64,000 nucleotides of DNA from a virus. Lineage: Duplodnaviria > Caudoviricetes. The position numbers and the translations under genes are program-made. Position 1 is the stretch's first letter, and each line of letters begins with the position of its first letter. Under the pieces are notes generated by a model. That model was given only the letters and a program-made list of their open reading frames with translations, ran no database searches and was not told the origin of the DNA. The DNA lies in the IMG/VR virus record IMGVR_UViG_3300049574_000143, positions 4,358 through 68,357 of that record. One strand, written 5' to 3'. Positions 8,249 through 59,432 of the stretch are shown here, piece after piece.

Positions 8249-8739
8249 GGGAGTCCTACCGCGCCATCCGGCCAGATGATCGTGTTGATCTCCGTGGTGT
8301 TCCGGACCTGACGAATGCACCCTTCGCAGGGTTCGCAAGAGACGTACATGGTGCCGCCCGTCATCAGGCCAGCACCACGCCTCTGGGCGTCAGCAAGTGC
8401 CGTCTGTTCCGCATGACTGGCGATGCAGGCACCCCTGCCGGTGTCGTACGACGAGCCGGGCGGGACGGCGTCCGGGCAGGGCCAGTCCCGACCACAGGCG
8501 CAGACGGGGCCGATCTTGTACTTGCTATTGAGGCCGCGCTCCACCAGCTTCCAGTGCCGCCCTCGCGGGCAGGCGCCCTCCAGGCAGCCCTTCTCGCCCG
8601 GCCGGGTGCCGTTGTAGCCGAGGCCGACGAATCGCTTGTCGACCACGATCAGGGCGCCGACCTTCCGGCGGGTGCAGTCGCCCATCCTCGCCAGCCAGTC
8701 GGCGCCGTCCAGGTGCCATTCGTCGCGGTCGGGCCTCAC
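8245..8739 (-). CDS. Deoxycytidylate (dCMP) deaminase
   Basis: CTRRKVGA, GYNG, HAEQ and PCEGC zinc-deaminase motifs; GTGA overlap start. Confidence 0.88.
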   Translation of the reverse strand: MRPDRDEWHLDGADWLARMGDCTRRKVGALIVVDKRFVGLGYNGTRPGEKGCLEGACPRGRHWKLVERGLNSKYKIGPVCACGRDWPCPDAVPPGSSYDTGRGACIASHAEQTALADAQRRGAGLMTGGTMYVSCEPCEGCIRQVRNTTEINTIIWPDGAVGLP

Positions 8740-25450: not shown

Positions 25451-26446
25451 ATGCCGAGACGCTCACCTACCGTTGCCGACGTTGGCTGGGACTTCATGGA
25501 AGCCCTTCAGCGGGCCGGATCACCCCAGAACACGTACCGGGTCTACCGCTCCAACTGGTCATCCATGCTCGATGAGTTGGGCGGTAGGGCGATCACCAGC
25601 ATCACCCCGGCAGATCTGGGAAGGTACTGCGACGGAGGCGGATCCGAGGCGACCAGGAAGATGCGCCGACGGATCGCCAACCACGTCATGCGCCACGCCT
25701 ACCGACGGGGCGACGTGCGGTCTGTAGTACTCGTCCCTGAGCCCTCGTACAAACCGCGCACAAAGCAGAACGCGGAGTGGACTCGGTACAGCAGCGAGCA
25801 ACTCAGACGACTCATCCTATCGGCGCCCTGCCCGAGAAGTAGGGCCGCTATCGCTATCGGCGTTTACACGGCCATGCGGATAGAGGACATACGTCTCCTG
25901 CGAGCGCCTTCCCCTGACCTCGCGGATGGCTGGCTGGCAGCCTTTATCCACAAGACCAAAGTCTATGATTTCAAAGTGATTTCGGGGGGATTGGATGAGG
26001 AGATACGGCTTTATCTGTCGTGGCTCTACAGTCACGGTCCGACCAGGGCCGAGGACTATCTGATACCGGGTTATCCACCGTCCAACAGGGGTGATGGTTA
26101 CCTGGACGGTATCGATCTTAGCCGGCCCATCTCGAAGCACGCGCTGTATACGCGATATGCCGAAGCGAGGGACAGGGCCGAACTGCCGTACATGAAACAG
26201 GAGAAGTGGCACACCGTACGCCGCTCGTCGGCTCGACTGTTTTTCGAGTTGGCATCCGACCGGGGGTACGACATGGCACTCAGGATGACTCAGGCGTTCC
26301 TGAACCATAAATCTGTGCAGACGACCGAGCGGTACATAGGTATCGACTCAGCGTATGCGATGCGAGATGACTTCCTCCGTGAGCACGACTTGCTGGGTGC
26401 TCAGGGGGACGTTGTGACCCTACGGGGGCGGGAAGCGGGTCGATAG
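25451..26446 (+). CDS. int: Tyrosine recombinase/integrase (XerC/D-like architecture)
   Basis: YTAMR (Arg), HKTK, HTVRR (HxxR), LNHKSVQTTERY (His, Tyr); N-terminal SAM-like core-binding region. Confidence 0.9.
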   Translation: MPRRSPTVADVGWDFMEALQRAGSPQNTYRVYRSNWSSMLDELGGRAITSITPADLGRYCDGGGSEATRKMRRRIANHVMRHAYRRGDVRSVVLVPEPSYKPRTKQNAEWTRYSSEQLRRLILSAPCPRSRAAIAIGVYTAMRIEDIRLLRAPSPDLADGWLAAFIHKTKVYDFKVISGGLDEEIRLYLSWLYSHGPTRAEDYLIPGYPPSNRGDGYLDGIDLSRPISKHALYTRYAEARDRAELPYMKQEKWHTVRRSSARLFFELASDRGYDMALRMTQAFLNHKSVQTTERYIGIDSAYAMRDDFLREHDLLGAQGDVVTLRGREAGR

Positions 26447-27016: not shown

Positions 27017-27421
27017 ATGATGTCCCTCCCCGCAAACCAGTCCGGAGAAGGCCTGAGCCGCAGGCAACAGAAGGACTACTTCGCTGAGTGGCTGAGGCGC
27101 ACCATGGCCAACAGCGGCGTCTCCGGTGGAGAGGTAGCGCGAGCTCTGAACGTCAACGACTCGGCCGTCAGTCGGTGGCGGAGCGGTAAGGCGACACCTG
27201 GACTTGAATCAGTCCAGAGCCTTGCGGAATTCCTTAACGTCGACCCAATCCGCCTGGCGGTGACAGCGGGCCTGTTGAAGCCCGAAGTAGTAAAATCGGA
27301 GATGCTTCCACTTCCGCCCGACACGGCGCAACGACAATTCGTCCGAGAGCAAATCTCCAAGATCCCCGGACTTACGGATGAGGAGAAAGCCAGACTTCTG
27401 GAGGCCTACGACGATGAGTGA
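27017..27421 (+). CDS. XRE-family immunity repressor
   Basis: HTH VSGGEVARALNVNDSAVSRWRSGKATP; AGGAG RBS; adjacent to the recombinase. Confidence 0.85.
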   Translation: MMSLPANQSGEGLSRRQQKDYFAEWLRRTMANSGVSGGEVARALNVNDSAVSRWRSGKATPGLESVQSLAEFLNVDPIRLAVTAGLLKPEVVKSEMLPLPPDTAQRQFVREQISKIPGLTDEEKARLLEAYDDE

Positions 27422-29029: not shown

Positions 29030-29067
29030 AAAAAATCGCCCCCCAAGGCCGAAGCCAAGGGGGGCGA
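29030..29067 (-). terminator. Late-operon terminator
   Basis: TCGCCCCCC..GGGGGGCGA stem followed by six T on the minus strand, downstream of the holin. Confidence 0.8.
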
Positions 29068-29309: not shown

Positions 29310-30080
29310 TTACCGCGGGACCTTGAGCTTGTCCCACGTGGTCTTGCCCGGCCACCCGTCGGCGTCCGAGCCACTGAAGCCGCACTTCCGCTGCCAGGCG
29401 GCGTACGACTCCCTGTCGACGTCGGTCCACTGGGGACCGGGGCCGACCTTGTACTTGCCGCACTTCTCGGCGACAAGCCGCTGTCCCATGTGCTCGATCA
29501 CGGGCGCGTTCGGCTTCCGCTGGAACCACGCGGTGCCGGGGAACGCCTGGAATGTGCCCTGGGACGTCTTGACGGGCGCAGAGCTGGGCGCCGGAGCACT
29601 GGTCGATGCCCCGGTGTACGCCGGCCGCCCGAAGCCGGCGATGTCGTGCACGTAGCGCACCTTGCGGGCGCAGACGTTGCCGATGTTGCCTTCGATGGTG
29701 TAGACGGTGGCGCCGTCGGTGCCGGTGACGACTCCGACGTGATCGATCGCGCCGATGGACGAGGAGCCGTCCCAGTCGAAGAAGACGACGTCGCCCCTAC
29801 GGATACCGCTGGCGACGACGCCGTTCGTCATCGCGTGCCACTCGCCGCGAGACTGGAAGGCCTGGGCGTGGGCGACGGTGTAGGCGTACTTCGCGTTGAA
29901 GCACACCGGACCCTGGACGCCGGCGTGGTACGCCCAGTAGGTGACGGCCTGGTCGCACCAGGGCTCACCGTTGAGGCCGTACCACTCGGTGATGTAGTTG
30001 ACGTTGTCGCCGTTGTGCTCACCGACACCGAGGGACTTCTCGGCCTGGGCGATGAACGCTTCGATCTGCGCGTTGCTCAC
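29310..30080 (-). CDS. Endolysin: CHAP domain plus C-terminal peptidoglycan-binding domain
   Basis: WCDQAV (Cys), GDVVFFDW, HVGVV (His), TIEGN; C-terminal WQRKCG..G..ADGWPGKTTW. Confidence 0.9.
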   Translation of the reverse strand: MSNAQIEAFIAQAEKSLGVGEHNGDNVNYITEWYGLNGEPWCDQAVTYWAYHAGVQGPVCFNAKYAYTVAHAQAFQSRGEWHAMTNGVVASGIRRGDVVFFDWDGSSSIGAIDHVGVVTGTDGATVYTIEGNIGNVCARKVRYVHDIAGFGRPAYTGASTSAPAPSSAPVKTSQGTFQAFPGTAWFQRKPNAPVIEHMGQRLVAEKCGKYKVGPGPQWTDVDRESYAAWQRKCGFSGSDADGWPGKTTWDKLKVPR

Positions 30081-30352
30081 GCCGACACCCCCTCGATGTG
30101 CGGGGCGTACACGCCCTTGACGGGCGCACCGAAGGCTTCGGTGAGCCTCTCTTCCTCGTCGGCCGCCGTGGGCGGCGTACGGGGCTCCCAGCCGGCCGGC
30201 GGGTTGAACTCCTGCTGGCCGGTATCGGGGTCCCTGACGCACTGCGTGCCCTTCGGGGGCATGTCGGACGGCGGCTCGACGGTCTCGGCGTCGTGCTCCC
30301 CGAACACCTTCTCGATGAGGCTCTCGCCCTCTTCCGCGTGCTTTCCGCTCAC
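30077..30352 (-). CDS. Small acidic hypothetical protein
   Basis: GAAGGGAAG RBS; coupled to both neighbours; LxExFG twice. Confidence 0.7.
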   Translation of the reverse strand: MSGKHAEEGESLIEKVFGEHDAETVEPPSDMPPKGTQCVRDPDTGQQEFNPPAGWEPRTPPTAADEEERLTEAFGAPVKGVYAPHIEGVSA

Positions 30353-30882
30353 GAGAGCTTCCCTTCGAACTCGGCGAGCGCCTTGGTGAGCGCCTCGCGC
30401 ACGGTCTGGCCGGCGTTGGTGAGCTGGTTCAGGGCGGCCTGGACCTGCCCGTGGCGGGACTCCAGGTCGTCGAGCGCCTTCTGCTTGTCGGCCAGTCCCT
30501 GCGTGCGTATCTGCTGCGCCTCCAGGACGGCCTGACCCTTGATGCCCTCGGCCTGTGTGGTGGCGTCGGCGACGATGCCGGCGGCCTGGCTCTTGGCGTC
30601 CGCGACGTGCTTGTCCGCGGTCTCCTGCGCCAGCGTGAGGATCTTCTCGGCGGAGCCGGCCGGTGAAGCGCTGGTGACGAGCGGGAGCTGCGTCGTGGGC
30701 GCCTCGGTCGGCCGGCTCTCCAGGATCCGGATACGGTCCTGGGCGGCGTTGTACTGCTGCTCCAGGACCGCGAGCTGGTCCGCCACCTGGTCCAGGAAGT
30801 CGTCGACCTCATCCTGGTCGTATCCCTCACGGAGCCTGGTGGTGGCGAACCGCTTCTTGTTGATGTCGGCGGGTGTCAACAT
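30349..30882 (-). CDS. divIVA: DivIVA/Wag31 family protein
   Basis: MLTPADINKKRFATTRLREGYDQDEVDDFLDQV is the actinobacterial DivIVA N-terminal signature; second coiled coil SAEKILTLAQETAD...A. Confidence 0.9.
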   Translation of the reverse strand: MLTPADINKKRFATTRLREGYDQDEVDDFLDQVADQLAVLEQQYNAAQDRIRILESRPTEAPTTQLPLVTSASPAGSAEKILTLAQETADKHVADAKSQAAGIVADATTQAEGIKGQAVLEAQQIRTQGLADKQKALDDLESRHGQVQAALNQLTNAGQTVREALTKALAEFEGKLS

Positions 30883-30892
30883 CGATTACTCC

Positions 30893-32248
30893 TTACTTCC
30901 AGTGGTGGTGGCCCCAGTGGTGGTGCCGGTGGTGGTGGTGCGCGACGGAACCCGTCGGCAGCCTCAGCACCTGGCCAGGGAAGATGAGGTCGGGGTTGTC
31001 ACCGACGACGTCCCTGTTTGCGGCGTAGAGGGCCGGCCACCCGCCGGGAACGTTGTGCTCCCTGGCGATCTTGTCGAGGTAGTCACCGACGACGACCGTG
31101 TAGGTACCGTCCGTGCTACTAACCGGGGGCGGAGTAGTAGTTCCATCGCCACCGCCGGTCGACGGGGGCGGCGTGGTGCTGCCACCGTCCGAGGGCGGGG
31201 GCGTGGTCGTTCCGCCATCCGACGGGGGCGGGTTGGTATCGCCGGTGTTACCACCAGTGGCGCTACCATCCGCGGGGACGAACGGCGCCGGCCGGACCAT
31301 GGCGGTACGGGCGGAGGGGCCGCGGCCGGAGCGCTCATCCATGAACGACCAGTTGACGTTCGGGCGCGCGGGGTGCCGGCTGTTCGTCTCGATCAGGTCT
31401 TCGCCGTTCGGCCCGATGGGTCCGACGTACAGCGCGACGTGACCTCCCTCGAACCCGTCGTAGGTGACGAGGTCACCCGGGAGCAGGTTGGCTGTCGAGG
31501 TGACCAGCGTGGCCTGGGGGCCGACGTTGGACGGGACCTCCTGGGAGTAGGAGTCACGGGCCGACTCGGTGAAGTCGACGCCGCCAGCCTTCCAGGCCTG
31601 CGAGGTGAGCCCCGAGCAGTCCCATCCGCCGTCCTGCGGGCCGTTGCCGCCGTAGACGTACGGAAGGTTGTAGCCGATCGCTGCGATGGCGTACTTGACC
31701 GCCAGGTCGGCCGGGGAGCCTTCCTTCGGCTTCGGCACGGTGGCGCCGGTGATCGGGTCGAGGGTTCCCGTGCTCGCCGGCGTGGTGGCCGGCGGAGTGG
31801 TAGTGGTCGTAGTTCCCGGGGCCGTACCTGGGTTGCCGGGGTTGGCATCCGCCTTGGTCAGGAGACCCTGGCAGGAGCCGTTCGAGAGGTCGCCGGTGTT
31901 GAACGTGATGGTCGACCAGGCATCCGGCCCCTGGTCTGCGAGCACCTTCTCGGCGATCGCTATCTGCTGAGCCTTCGTGGCCTGCTCCGCGCTGGGCGCG
32001 TAAGCAGTGCCTCCATATGCCGCCCACGTGGACGGGATGATCTGAAGCCCGCCGCCGCCAGGCGCATTCCAGTTTCCGGACGACTCACATGAAGCGAGCT
32101 GGTCCCACTGGGATTCGGTGGCGGCAGAAGCGGAACTGGCGAAGGTCGCGGGAACAGCGACAGCTCCAAGCCCAACGGTTGCACCGAGGGCTATCTTCTT
32201 CATCGTCGTCGTGTTGGTCGGCTGGCGGTGGCGTCCGTGCGTCACCAT
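30893..32248 (-). CDS. Secreted Rpf-like transglycosylase, NlpC/P60 peptidase and LysM protein
   Basis: GRHR plus signal peptide; [17 protein letters not shown]...TW..YGG...[14 protein letters not shown]; PYVYGG..DCSGL..GHVALY; [12 protein letters not shown]...[11 protein letters not shown]. Confidence 0.92.
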
Positions 32249-56792: not shown

Positions 56793-59432
56793 TTATGTCG
56801 ATTGAGACAGGTTCGATTGGGTGCTGGATTCGAAGGCCTGAACTACCGTGCCGGAGATACTGATTGCACTGGCCACGGTGGAGCTGAACCCGTGAATCAT
56901 GTTCCCGAGGAATACGTTTCCGGTTGCGTTAGAGCCCTCTTGCTTGAAGGCCTGGGCAGCTTCCGTGCCACTTCCCTCGGTGCAGATCGTGTTGGCCATC
57001 ACCACGTTGCCCGTATTGCCAGCTGCGCCGGAAATGGCGATTGCGGCGTTCGTACCAGAAGTGCCACGGGCACCCTTGACGAAGTTACCAACGATCTGAT
57101 TCTGAGCGGCGCCACCGCTGACATAGAACGCGCGGTCGCCGGCTCTGCGAATGTTGTTTCCGGAGAAGACGTTGTAACTGGCTCCAACTGCGATGTCGAT
57201 GCCCCTACCGGCCGCGTCCACGATGGTATTTCCGTGGACGGAGCCCCCCTGTACGTACGACAGTGAAATGCCGTACTCGGGTGCATTCCTGATGACGTTT
57301 CCGGTGATGGTCGGGTTATTCACTAGGCCGGTGGATTCACCGAATACGCGAATCGCCGCCACGCCACCCGTCGTGCCGGTCGCCATCTCGAAGGTGTTCC
57401 CGGTGATGGTCAGGTTCCAGATGTCCTGAGTGGCGCCAGTCTGCACACCGGTACGGGTTAGGGTGTTTGTGGTTGTCCCGGTGTCCGTCCAGATCGGGCG
57501 CACCTCGACACCCCATCCGCCTACGAAGTGGTTGTCGGAGATGATGGAGTTGTTCCAGCTATACCCCCGGACGCCCTTCTCGATCGTCTCCACATAATTC
57601 CCGGTGAACCGGATGCTGTCGTGAGCCGTAGTGGTCCCGATGGTTCCGTTGTGCGACCCGATGGCGCGATTCCATGCGGTAGTGCCAGGCATGTACGACT
57701 GGACGAAGCTGCACGAGCGGACCGTGATGTCCTTGCATGGCGTGTCGTCGTACGGCCCGAAACTGCCGAAGACTCCGGAATCCTTCGCCAGGTCGAGCTG
57801 AATGCACTCCGAGTGGCGTGCGTTGTACTGAACCGTGCCGGCGAACCGGCAGTTGTCGAACAGCACCTTTCGGCAGGCGTTGATCTCTACGCAGTGCTGG
57901 TTCTGAGAGACGTCCCGGACCTCAACGTCGCGGAAGGTGATGCTGTGGCCGTGGCCGAAGCTGAAGGCGCCACCCGAACTGGCCGTACCCCACGACATCG
58001 GGGTGTCGAAGGCCCCGAGCCTGGCCGTGGTGTCCTTGACGATGATTCCGGCCTTGGTCGCCTGGTAGTTGAAGGCGTCCGTGAAATCGTGCGTCAGCGT
58101 CGTACCGACATAGCCCCGGATCTCCTTGCCCATGACCTGGACCTGGAGCACGTTGCCCGACGCAACAGCCTGCGTCGCGGTGGGAGTCATCGCCGTGTCG
58201 ACGCCAGCAACTACCTTGCCCAGACGGGCGTTTCCATCCGTGTGGCGGACGAAGTACCAGTAGTTGCTGCTGTCGACGTAGCGGAAGACCAGGCCGGCGT
58301 TCCCGGCCGTAGACATCGTCACCGTCGGGTTGCAGTCCTGGATGACGTCGACCGTGGAGATGTTCGTACCGGCACCCGGGGCGTACGCCAGGTTCGTATT
58401 GATGCCCAGGGTGCCGGAGCGCGAGGTCCAGGGGTAGTTCGAGCTCGTCGTGCCGAGCGAGGTCGAGCTGTTGGACCGGGTGAAGCTGTCCGCCCAGATC
58501 GAGGCCGACGAGGAGAAGTTGTCCAGGCGTGCCGTGGTGTCGAAGACCACCAGGCCCACCTTGCGGTTGGCGGTGAAGCCCGCCAGGTCCGCGGTGTCGT
58601 GCGTCAGGGTCGTGCCGACGTACGCCCGGATCCGGTTGCCGAAGAAGACCACCGTGAGGGTGTTGCCGGCCGAGACCGCCTGAGTCGCCGTCGGCGCCAC
58701 CACGGTCTCCACGCCGCGCACCCAGTAGCTGAGGCGCGCGTTTCCGTCGGTGTGCCGGACGTACTGCCAGTAGTTCTGGCCGTCCGCGAGGCGGAAGACG
58801 AGGCCGGCGTTCCCGACGGTGGGGATCGTGCAGGACAGCGTCCCGTTCGGCCAGGACTTCACGGTGGAGATGTTCGTGCCGGCCGCGGCTGCGGACACCG
58901 TGTTGGAGGTGATCCCGAGGCAGCCGGCGGTCGAGGTGCCGTCATCCCGCATGGATTCGTCGATCCACGTCTGGCCGGTGTCCATGACGCCCAGAGTGTG
59001 CGGCGCCGAGGTGTTGGACCGGGTGAAGGTGTCGGTGGCCAGGCTGACCGTCGAGGTGGAGCAGCGCAGGTCCCACACGCCGCCCTCGATGACGATGTTG
59101 CCGTGACCGGTGTAGCCGGCCCGGTTCTGGCCGCTGTCGCCGTTCCAGGCCATCGAGACGCCACCGGTGTCGTTGTACCGGTGGATCTCGGCGCCCGGGA
59201 GCAGGGTCAGCCGCACGTTGGACCGGATCTTGAAGGGTGGGTCCATGTGCCGGTAGATCCCCTTGGGTACGATGACCTGGCCCCCGCCGGCGTTGAAGGC
59301 GGCGTCCAGGGCTGCCTGGATGTAGGGGCTGTCGTTGGTGCTGTCGTCGCCCTTGGCGGCGTACTGCTTGACGTTGAAAACAGCCGGGGAGGACTCCCCG
59401 GTGTTCGTTATGGGTGCAACGAACTTGGGCAC
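56793..59432 (-). CDS. Tailspike-like right-handed beta-helix protein (pectate-lyase-like) with duplicated lectin-like insert
   Basis: FNVKQYAAKGDDSTNDSPYIQAALDA...GG.VIVP.GIY; ITGN/FSGN/IVGN helix turns; two ~170-aa DxFTRSN domains. Confidence 0.85.
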   Translation of the reverse strand: MPKFVAPITNTGESSPAVFNVKQYAAKGDDSTNDSPYIQAALDAAFNAGGGQVIVPKGIYRHMDPPFKIRSNVRLTLLPGAEIHRYNDTGGVSMAWNGDSGQNRAGYTGHGNIVIEGGVWDLRCSTSTVSLATDTFTRSNTSAPHTLGVMDTGQTWIDESMRDDGTSTAGCLGITSNTVSAAAAGTNISTVKSWPNGTLSCTIPTVGNAGLVFRLADGQNYWQYVRHTDGNARLSYWVRGVETVVAPTATQAVSAGNTLTVVFFGNRIRAYVGTTLTHDTADLAGFTANRKVGLVVFDTTARLDNFSSSASIWADSFTRSNSSTSLGTTSSNYPWTSRSGTLGINTNLAYAPGAGTNISTVDVIQDCNPTVTMSTAGNAGLVFRYVDSSNYWYFVRHTDGNARLGKVVAGVDTAMTPTATQAVASGNVLQVQVMGKEIRGYVGTTLTHDFTDAFNYQATKAGIIVKDTTARLGAFDTPMSWGTASSGGAFSFGHGHSITFRDVEVRDVSQNQHCVEINACRKVLFDNCRFAGTVQYNARHSECIQLDLAKDSGVFGSFGPYDDTPCKDITVRSCSFVQSYMPGTTAWNRAIGSHNGTIGTTTAHDSIRFTGNYVETIEKGVRGYSWNNSIISDNHFVGGWGVEVRPIWTDTGTTTNTLTRTGVQTGATQDIWNLTITGNTFEMATGTTGGVAAIRVFGESTGLVNNPTITGNVIRNAPEYGISLSYVQGGSVHGNTIVDAAGRGIDIAVGASYNVFSGNNIRRAGDRAFYVSGGAAQNQIVGNFVKGARGTSGTNAAIAISGAAGNTGNVVMANTICTEGSGTEAAQAFKQEGSNATGNVFLGNMIHGFSSTVASAISISGTVVQAFESSTQSNLSQST

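Follow-up and report, generated by a model that had tools for sequence, protein, structure and literature searches.

The window, that is, the whole 64-kb stretch of DNA analyzed here, covers most of a 68-kb virus record of IMG/VR. It encodes capsid, portal, tape-measure and tail proteins together with a tyrosine integrase and an HTH regulator (Table 1), indicating that the virus is a temperate siphophage. A depolymerase-type spike of 879 aa, built of beta-helix repeats like those of pectate lyases, is encoded in a block upstream of the terminase region, separate from the main tail module. On the minus strand, 3′ of the tail genes, lie in order the genes for an 86-aa holin-like protein, a secreted peptidoglycan (PG) hydrolase, a DivIVA-like protein, a very acidic ORF, a CHAP/NlpC-like endolysin and a holin-like hydrophobic protein of 58 residues.

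The gene for the 86-aa protein is the first of the cell-wall cassette, and its stop codon lies 1 nt before the ATG of the hydrolase gene (TGAAATG). The 451-aa hydrolase starts with a basic n-region (GRHRQP) and a Sec-type signal peptide, which are followed by an Rpf-like transglycosylase domain, an NlpC/P60 domain, a LysM domain and a His-rich tail. The DivIVA-like gene begins 10 nt after the hydrolase gene, with AAGGAG placed 6 nt 5′ of its ATG start codon. Its stop codon overlaps the GTG start codon of the acidic ORF (GTGA), and the stop codon of the acidic ORF in turn overlaps the GTG of the endolysin gene at position 30080 (GTGA). A previous sequence-only reading placed the DivIVA-like gene inside the lysis cassette and described it as translationally coupled to the endolysin. 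The location is borne out by its neighbors, the hydrolase with the signal peptide and the CHAP-like endolysin; the coupling is real but indirect, since it runs over two GTGA overlaps by way of the 91-aa acidic ORF. The position and charge of this ORF recall Gp1, the chaperone-like protein encoded upstream of lysA in mycobacteriophage Ms6. Neither the acidic ORF nor the 58-aa holin-like protein has a match in Pfam or PHROG, and the endolysin gene shows similarity at the DNA level to Streptomyces phage endolysins. A consensus scan found no promoter-like site inside the cassette.

Table 1. Features of the window discussed in the text (loci L002, L007 and L009 are described below)
Feature	Position	Strand	Basis or remark
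Tyrosine integrase	25451–26446	+	
HTH regulator	27017–27421	+	
Terminator-like hairpin and T-run, end of the minus-strand operon	29039–29062	-	Consensus scan only; number found equals the shuffle expectation
Holin-like hydrophobic protein, 58 aa	29114–29290	-	71–81% identical counterparts 3′ of the endolysin gene in L002, L007 and L009
CHAP/NlpC-like endolysin, 256 aa from the GTG, C-terminal wall-binding region	29310–30080	-	phrog_21825 (E 4.7e-27), phrog_9589 (E 9.9e-26, 'endolysin')
Very acidic ORF, 91 aa	30077–30352	-	GTGA overlaps on both sides; C-terminal motif EExLxEAFGxPxxGVY
DivIVA-like protein, 177 aa	30349–30882	-	ATG start; PF05103, 6LFA/2WUJ matches, AF2
Single long helix equivalent to host CC2, residues 77–177	30352–30654	-	AF2 helix, identity, BLASTP
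Short disordered linker, residues 57–76, (A/P)-T-x-x-hydrophobic-P motif	30655–30714	-	pLDDT, alignment conservation
N-terminal membrane-binding domain and first coiled coil, residues 1–56, loop TTRLREGYDQDEVDDFLD	30715–30882	-	Identity to host, AF2 helices
Secreted PG hydrolase, 451 aa	30893–32248	-	PF06737 (E 7.6e-24), PF00877 (E 5.1e-10), PF01476 (E 2.9e-6)
His-rich end of the hydrolase	30893–30940	-	
N-terminal M-x-G-(K/R)-H-x-(K/R)-P of the hydrolase	32204–32248	-	Alignment of hydrolase N-termini
Holin-like 86-aa protein, N-terminal coiled-coil-like region and C-terminal TM segment	32250–32510	-	phrog_5225 (E 1.8e-11); weak phrog_689 ('holin', E 1.4e-3)
879-aa depolymerase-type spike	56793–59432	-	Beta-helix pectate-lyase-like repeats

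A phage-borne DivIVA-family protein with a short linker

The 177-aa ORF encodes a real DivIVA-family protein, and this protein is phage-borne. The Pfam profile PF05103 (DivIVA) matches residues 2–128 with 58.4 bits (E 9.4e-16), well over the curated gathering score of 28 bits, and the match at this gene recurs in a six-frame search of the virus record. The solved N-terminal domains of Wag31 (6LFA) and of B. subtilis DivIVA (2WUJ and 2WUK) match residues 2–55 in phmmer searches. The protein has the features of the PF05103 family, namely an N-terminal lipid-binding domain with its loop, the GYxxxEVDxFLD motif and a coiled coil, and then a flexible linker and a long C-terminal coiled coil. The sequence-only reading had recognized the DivIVA N-terminal signature and the second coiled coil (CC2), and the profile match and the BLASTP alignment with the N domain and CC2 of host DivIVA agree with it. 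Among the PHROGs, no family matches the protein at E <= 0.01. Foldseek comparison of the monomer model with the PDB gave nothing significant; DivIVA and GpsB N domains lead at E 0.6–6, with the DivIVA N domain 2WUK as the best, weak match (E 0.59) and GpsB N domains next.

An AlphaFold2 (AF2) model of the protein, based on an alignment of 32 relatives, has a mean pLDDT of 81.5. The model consists of a short helix at residues 4–8, a loop followed by a helix at residues 23–56, a disordered stretch at residues 57–76, in which residues 61–75 have pLDDT values below 50, and an uninterrupted helix at residues 77–176. BLASTP comparison with chromosomal DivIVA (357–358 aa) from two Streptomyces genomes has shown that residues 2–45 correspond to the host N domain and residues 77–169 to the host CC2 (phage SAEKILTLAQETAD vs host SAARVLSLAQQTAD). 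The PQG-rich intercoil region of the host protein, roughly 100 residues long, has no counterpart in the phage protein; the alignment passes over about 85 of these residues. Whereas a Streptomyces orthologue is characterized by this intercoil region and a C-terminal tail, the phage protein has a 20-residue linker and ends after CC2. The lack of the tail, already proposed from the sequence, is confirmed by the BLASTP alignment, which ends about 100 residues before the host C-terminus. The tail of host DivIVA is the region reported to carry the AfsK phosphosites. The protein had also been called compact, which holds in comparison with Streptomyces DivIVA but not with Bacillus DivIVA, for which a size of 164 aa is normal (PMC12585849).

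The resemblance to the host protein is unevenly distributed. Identity to 31 Streptomyces DivIVA proteins is 61% over residues 1–23, 30% over the first coiled coil (CC1), 46% over residues 77–110, which form the first third of CC2, and 20% over the remaining part of CC2. The membrane loop reads TTRLRE in the phage protein and TVRLRE in the host protein. Tyr and Asp of the GYxxxxVDxFLD motif are invariant in the alignment of the phage family, and Gln takes the place of the host Glu (GYDQ) in 32/32 members. GpsB also has Gln at the position equivalent to Q23.

Within the otherwise variable disordered linker, Thr63 is nearly invariant and lies in the motif (A/P)-T-x-x-(I/L/V/M)-P. Its spacing may resemble that of the sequence around the T73 phosphosite of Wag31. 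T73 of Wag31 is a PknA site (PMC9878328). Thr63 could be a kinase target. Since this Thr is nearly invariant, the phage DivIVA-like protein is not necessarily unregulated.

Conservation of the lysis module among phages and prophages

A search of 5.8 billion proteins has yielded about 30 full-length relatives, which are 164–203 aa long, at 38–77% identity, and a profile search of 1.84 billion cluster representatives has yielded 75 proteins at E <= 1e-30, with many single-stretch proteins of 155–205 aa among them. The same profile also scores actinobacterial proteins of 180–400 aa with 4–8 tandem DivIVA N-terminal domains (e.g. P0128, P0132 and P0160); this tandem architecture is unrelated to the phage family, though it scores highly with the phage profile. 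In IMG/VR, a close-relative scan with a single-protein query found nothing, and an alignment-based scan found five loci.

Every readable context contains the same module, in which genes for a large minor tail protein, a DUF5047 protein and a fiber are followed by those for a signal-peptide PG hydrolase (Rpf with M23 or NlpC/P60, plus LysM), the DivIVA-like protein, the acidic ORF, the CHAP endolysin and a holin. The module is found with intact ORFs in nine independent loci: the window, the IMG/VR contigs L002 and L003, the metagenome contigs L007, L096/L097 and L098/L099, and prophages of Streptomyces sp. NPDC015131 (L009), S. hydrogenans JCM 4771 (L010) and an S. microflavus assembly (L100), the last with an integrase nearby. 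Thus, the DivIVA-like gene keeps a co-oriented position amid lysin and holin genes in all nine loci, with GTGA overlaps in the window, which places it in the lysis cassette. Between the window and L002, tblastn identity is 57% for the tail protein, 59% for the DUF5047 protein, 44% for the fiber and 46% for the endolysin, and that of the DivIVA-like protein is 43%, indicating that the gene has diverged in step with its neighbors. In L098, the hydrolase gene and the DivIVA-like gene are separated by an inserted gene for a homing-type Endonuclease_7 (L098:6431-6982), and the remaining module is intact.

The acidic ORF, 44–97 aa in length, always lies between the DivIVA-like gene and the endolysin gene and carries the motif (D/E)EExLLxE(M/A)FGEPDxxGVY. 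Its counterparts are located at L002:8488-8649, L007:10539-10673, L009 about 8545-8718 and L096:7570-7863, and the motif is shared by the counterparts of 44–57 aa in L002, L007, L009 and L010. The His-rich end of the hydrolase is not seen in the counterparts of L009, L010 and L002; it is possible that this tail is a metal-binding or wall-anchoring tag.

A maximum-likelihood tree was built from 34 phage-type proteins, 12 Streptomyces DivIVA proteins and 59 DivIVA-domain proteins from other Actinomycetota. The 34 phage-type proteins form one clan with long branches (SH-aLRT 99), apart from the DivIVA of the host genus and from the DivIVA-domain proteins of other Actinomycetota. Such a separate clan argues for an old phage lineage and against a recent capture or a misassembly. 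The sequence-only reading had allowed for host DNA joined by misassembly, and a decaying, functionless passenger would be a related explanation; the 61% identity of the first 23 residues to host DivIVA speaks for this. However, the ORFs are intact and syntenic in nine independent loci from isolates and metagenomes, at the identities given above, the clan is separate from host DivIVA, the gene overlaps its neighbor translationally, and its GC3 of 0.93 is similar to that of the neighboring genes. An origin of this kind is scarcely credible and, judging from the synteny survey, is effectively excluded. Pairwise NG86 dN/dS between loci, a crude measure that is unreliable at a GC3 of 0.93 and at this divergence, is 0.6–1.1 for the whole gene, 0.45 for the N domain and near 1 outside it, and thus gives no strong constraint signal on the coils.

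A hydrolase gene followed by a DivIVA-domain gene is also found in a second lineage. In the viral contigs L005 (6966-8702) and L006 (636-2381), a signal-peptide hydrolase with LysM, Excalibur and SLT domains is directly followed by a DivIVA-domain protein of 233–237 aa, and in L006 the genes for the large terminase and the portal come about 4 kb downstream of the pair. Since the hydrolase in this pair is a different one, the pairing of hydrolase and DivIVA recurs independently. Alignment of the hydrolase N-termini from the window, L003, L005–L007, L009, L010, L096, L098 and L100 has shown that 10/10 carry M-x-G-(K/R)-H-x-(K/R)-P before the hydrophobic core; this basic n-region is followed by about 10 residues, the signal peptide and an AxA site. 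The GRHRRP-type start is also present on chromosomal Rpf-like proteins of two Streptomyces genomes (L135, L137, L138 and L143), so that the n-region is not specific to the phage hydrolase/DivIVA pair. It appears to mark secreted wall hydrolases throughout the genus.

The gene is rare. The isolated phages nearest by tail protein (about 45%) are the Rhodococcus phages REQ1 and Shagrat, which have one endolysin and a holin and lack DivIVA. A tblastn search of 50,697 phage records found no actinophage relative of the DivIVA-like protein, the matches being to Listeria and Enterococcus records, all weak or fragmentary, and to a protein of 72 aa from a Bifidobacterium phage; the isolated Streptomyces phages within this collection contain no DivIVA-like member, and the L005 protein as a second query found nothing in the phage records. 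Among 201 Streptomyces species genomes, the only phage-type match is in the genome carrying the L009 prophage (E 1e-52). The 200 others have host-type N-domain matches only, mostly at E 1e-19 to 1e-20 and none stronger, and the tally includes the unpublished genome G132, which has a host-type match only. Such rarity, both in the 200 genomes and among isolated Streptomyces phages, indicates that the gene is not needed for Streptomyces lysis in general.

Possible roles in lysis of a tip-growing host

The operon structure suggests that the DivIVA-like protein is made late, being transcribed with the late tail and lysis genes. It would then oligomerize as cellular DivIVA does, alone or mixed with host DivIVA, and bind the membrane where it is negatively curved, at hyphal tips, branch points and cross-walls. 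Because it has neither of the regions that temper DivIVA behavior, the phage protein may deregulate or mark the apical wall-building zone, where the secreted Rpf/NlpC-P60 hydrolase and, once released by the holin, the CHAP endolysin would breach the wall at its newest and weakest place. The protein would thus assist lysis as an accessory factor adapted to filamentous hosts that grow at their tips. We tentatively favor this hypothesis, to which we give a little less than an even chance: a phage-borne 'minimal DivIVA', fixed in the lysis module of temperate Streptomyces siphophages, may be expressed late and act as a scaffold at the poles, weakening hyphal tips or marking them for lysis.

A role in tip-directed lysis is plausible because an engineered DivIVA reduced to its N domain and CC2 works in a member of the Streptomycetaceae and makes the tips burst (PMC12585849). 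This protein, DivIVAmin, is a 186-aa derivative of Kitasatospora viridifaciens DivIVA (Lubbers et al. 2025, PMC12585849). Walled growth is still possible with DivIVAmin, and the cells form short hyphae that are 1.7x wider, with walls 1.9x thicker, more cross-walls and frequent localized bursting of the tips; these phenotypes were observed with DivIVAmin as the sole DivIVA and over growth time-scales (PMC12585849). A membrane-binding domain of the Kitasatospora type was needed, and Bacillus coils did not work (PMC12585849). Since CC1 and distal CC2 of the phage protein are only 20–30% identical to the host protein, co-assembly with host DivIVA is not assured.

The fixed order of hydrolase and DivIVA-like genes can also be read in another way, in which the protein is an adaptor or positioning factor for the hydrolases of the phage itself, working on the cytoplasmic side like GpsB or Listeria DivIVA. 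Such an adaptor would direct the export or placement of the signal-peptide hydrolase, perhaps through the basic GRHRxP n-region, or else that of the endolysin and its small acidic partner, and the host polarisome need not be disturbed. In GpsB, the residues equivalent to the invariant Tyr and Asp of the GYxxxxVDxFLD motif contact Arg-rich PBP tails, and GpsB N domains are among the weak Foldseek matches. Listeria DivIVA is needed for SecA2-dependent secretion of p60, a LysM-NlpC/P60 autolysin. Both phage lineages, whose hydrolases are built differently, invariably have the gene behind that for a PG hydrolase with a signal peptide, and the M-x-G-(K/R)-H-x-(K/R)-P start is common to all ten aligned hydrolases. 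However, the occurrence of the GRHRRP-type n-region on host chromosomal Rpf-like proteins means that it is a host-type signal that has not co-evolved with the phage DivIVA, and the homing-endonuclease gene splits the hydrolase from the DivIVA-like gene in L098. On balance, we regard an adaptor role as unlikely, though not negligibly so.

Interference with the host polarisome is a further explanation. A dominant-negative mimic would poison or remodel the polarisome, thereby blocking superinfection by DivIVA-dependent phages or arresting host growth. Mycobacteriophage Fruitloop gp52 binds and inactivates Wag31, resulting in heterotypic exclusion of Rosebush, an established case of phage targeting of DivIVA (PMC7474061). 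The host-like N domain and CC2 start kept in the phage protein would suit such a mimic. Genes for exclusion are mostly active early in infection or in the prophage state, whereas the DivIVA-like gene lacks its own promoter-like site and lies 10 nt behind the hydrolase gene in a presumably late operon. Its fixed position between two lysins likewise argues for a role linked to lysis, and we consider interference of this kind decidedly improbable. A role apart from the wall and lysis, e.g. as a scaffold that organizes phage DNA or assembly sites at the poles, is less probable still, and we would be surprised by it. Cellular DivIVA anchors ParA/ParB or RacA, DivIVA proteins are generic polar hubs, and the gene directly follows the tail module; nevertheless, 9/9 loci place it in the hydrolase-to-holin block and not among replication or head genes.

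The hypothesis of a polar scaffold for lysis has a more far-reaching form, which we regard as doubtful. The phage would have domesticated a polarity organizer of its host as a site-directed lysis factor, which targets itself to tips or nascent branch sites, so that with the secreted hydrolase and a chaperoned endolysin the mycelium would burst at defined apical points. If true, this would be the first phage in which the site of lysis is chosen by means of a homologue of a polarity protein of the host cell. Phage lysis of a branching, multi-compartment, tip-growing mycelium is poorly understood, and with the DivIVA-like gene nature has run an experiment of its own on DivIVA, an essential polarity protein. 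If the protein acts at tips, phage lysis would be spatially targeted via mimicry of a host polarity factor; the protein would then also be a small and easily transferred means of disturbing the polarisome and would help to identify the parts of DivIVA that hold apical wall synthesis in check. Cultured strains (S. hydrogenans JCM 4771, Streptomyces sp. NPDC015131 and the S. microflavus assembly) contain inducible prophages with the gene, and therefore the idea is directly testable.

Comparison with known DivIVA systems

The DivIVA family is well known, and a few phage ORFs are already labelled 'DivIVA domain' in GenBank. Literature searches on phage-encoded DivIVA homologues in Streptomyces phages or lysis cassettes found no description of a complete minimal DivIVA that is conserved within such a cassette. 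Bifidobacterium phage PMBT6 encodes a protein with a DivIVA N-domain match, but this protein is 72 aa long, consists of the N domain only and is encoded in the early region. In Enterococcus phage VEsP-2, the DivIVA-domain copy adjoins a fragment annotated as transduced bacterial DNA. Neither protein is in a lysis cassette or in the clan of the window protein. Fruitloop gp52 is likewise made by a phage and is directed against the DivIVA system of an actinobacterium, a target that for the phage DivIVA-like protein is proposed. Unlike the latter, gp52 is not a DivIVA homologue, does not belong to a lysis cassette and acts in superinfection exclusion.

Among cellular proteins, GpsB, a DivIVA paralogue and PBP adaptor, shares a homologous N domain and weak Foldseek matches with the phage protein. 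However, GpsB is about 100 aa long with a short C-terminal trimerization helix, whereas the 100-residue helix of the phage protein aligns with DivIVA CC2. B. subtilis DivIVA (164 aa; 2WUJ/2WUK) is similar in overall size and two-part layout, and its N domain is aligned over residues 2–55, but the membrane loop of the phage protein is of the longer actinobacterial type. Streptomyces DivIVA and Wag31 belong to the same Pfam family and share the N domain signature TxRLREGYDxDEVDxFLD and the CC2 start SAxxxLxLAQxTAD. The phage protein differs from Streptomyces DivIVA in that its gene lies in a lysis operon and not on the chromosome, in that it belongs to a distinct clan and in that it lacks the intercoil region and the tail.

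DivIVAmin shares with the phage protein the order of the N domain with CC1 and then CC2, without the long intercoil region and without the C-terminal tail. The two are similar in size (177 aa for the phage protein vs 186 aa), the phage family ranges over 164–203 aa, and both have an N-terminal loop of the Streptomycetaceae type. DivIVAmin is a laboratory deletion of a host gene, whereas the phage protein is natural and evolves separately, with a 20-residue linker that contains a conserved Thr and coils that are 20–46% identical to those of the host. Evolution has thus reached the same minimal architecture as the 2025 deletion study, an architecture that is functional and tip-destabilizing there and that in the phage is set between two lysins.
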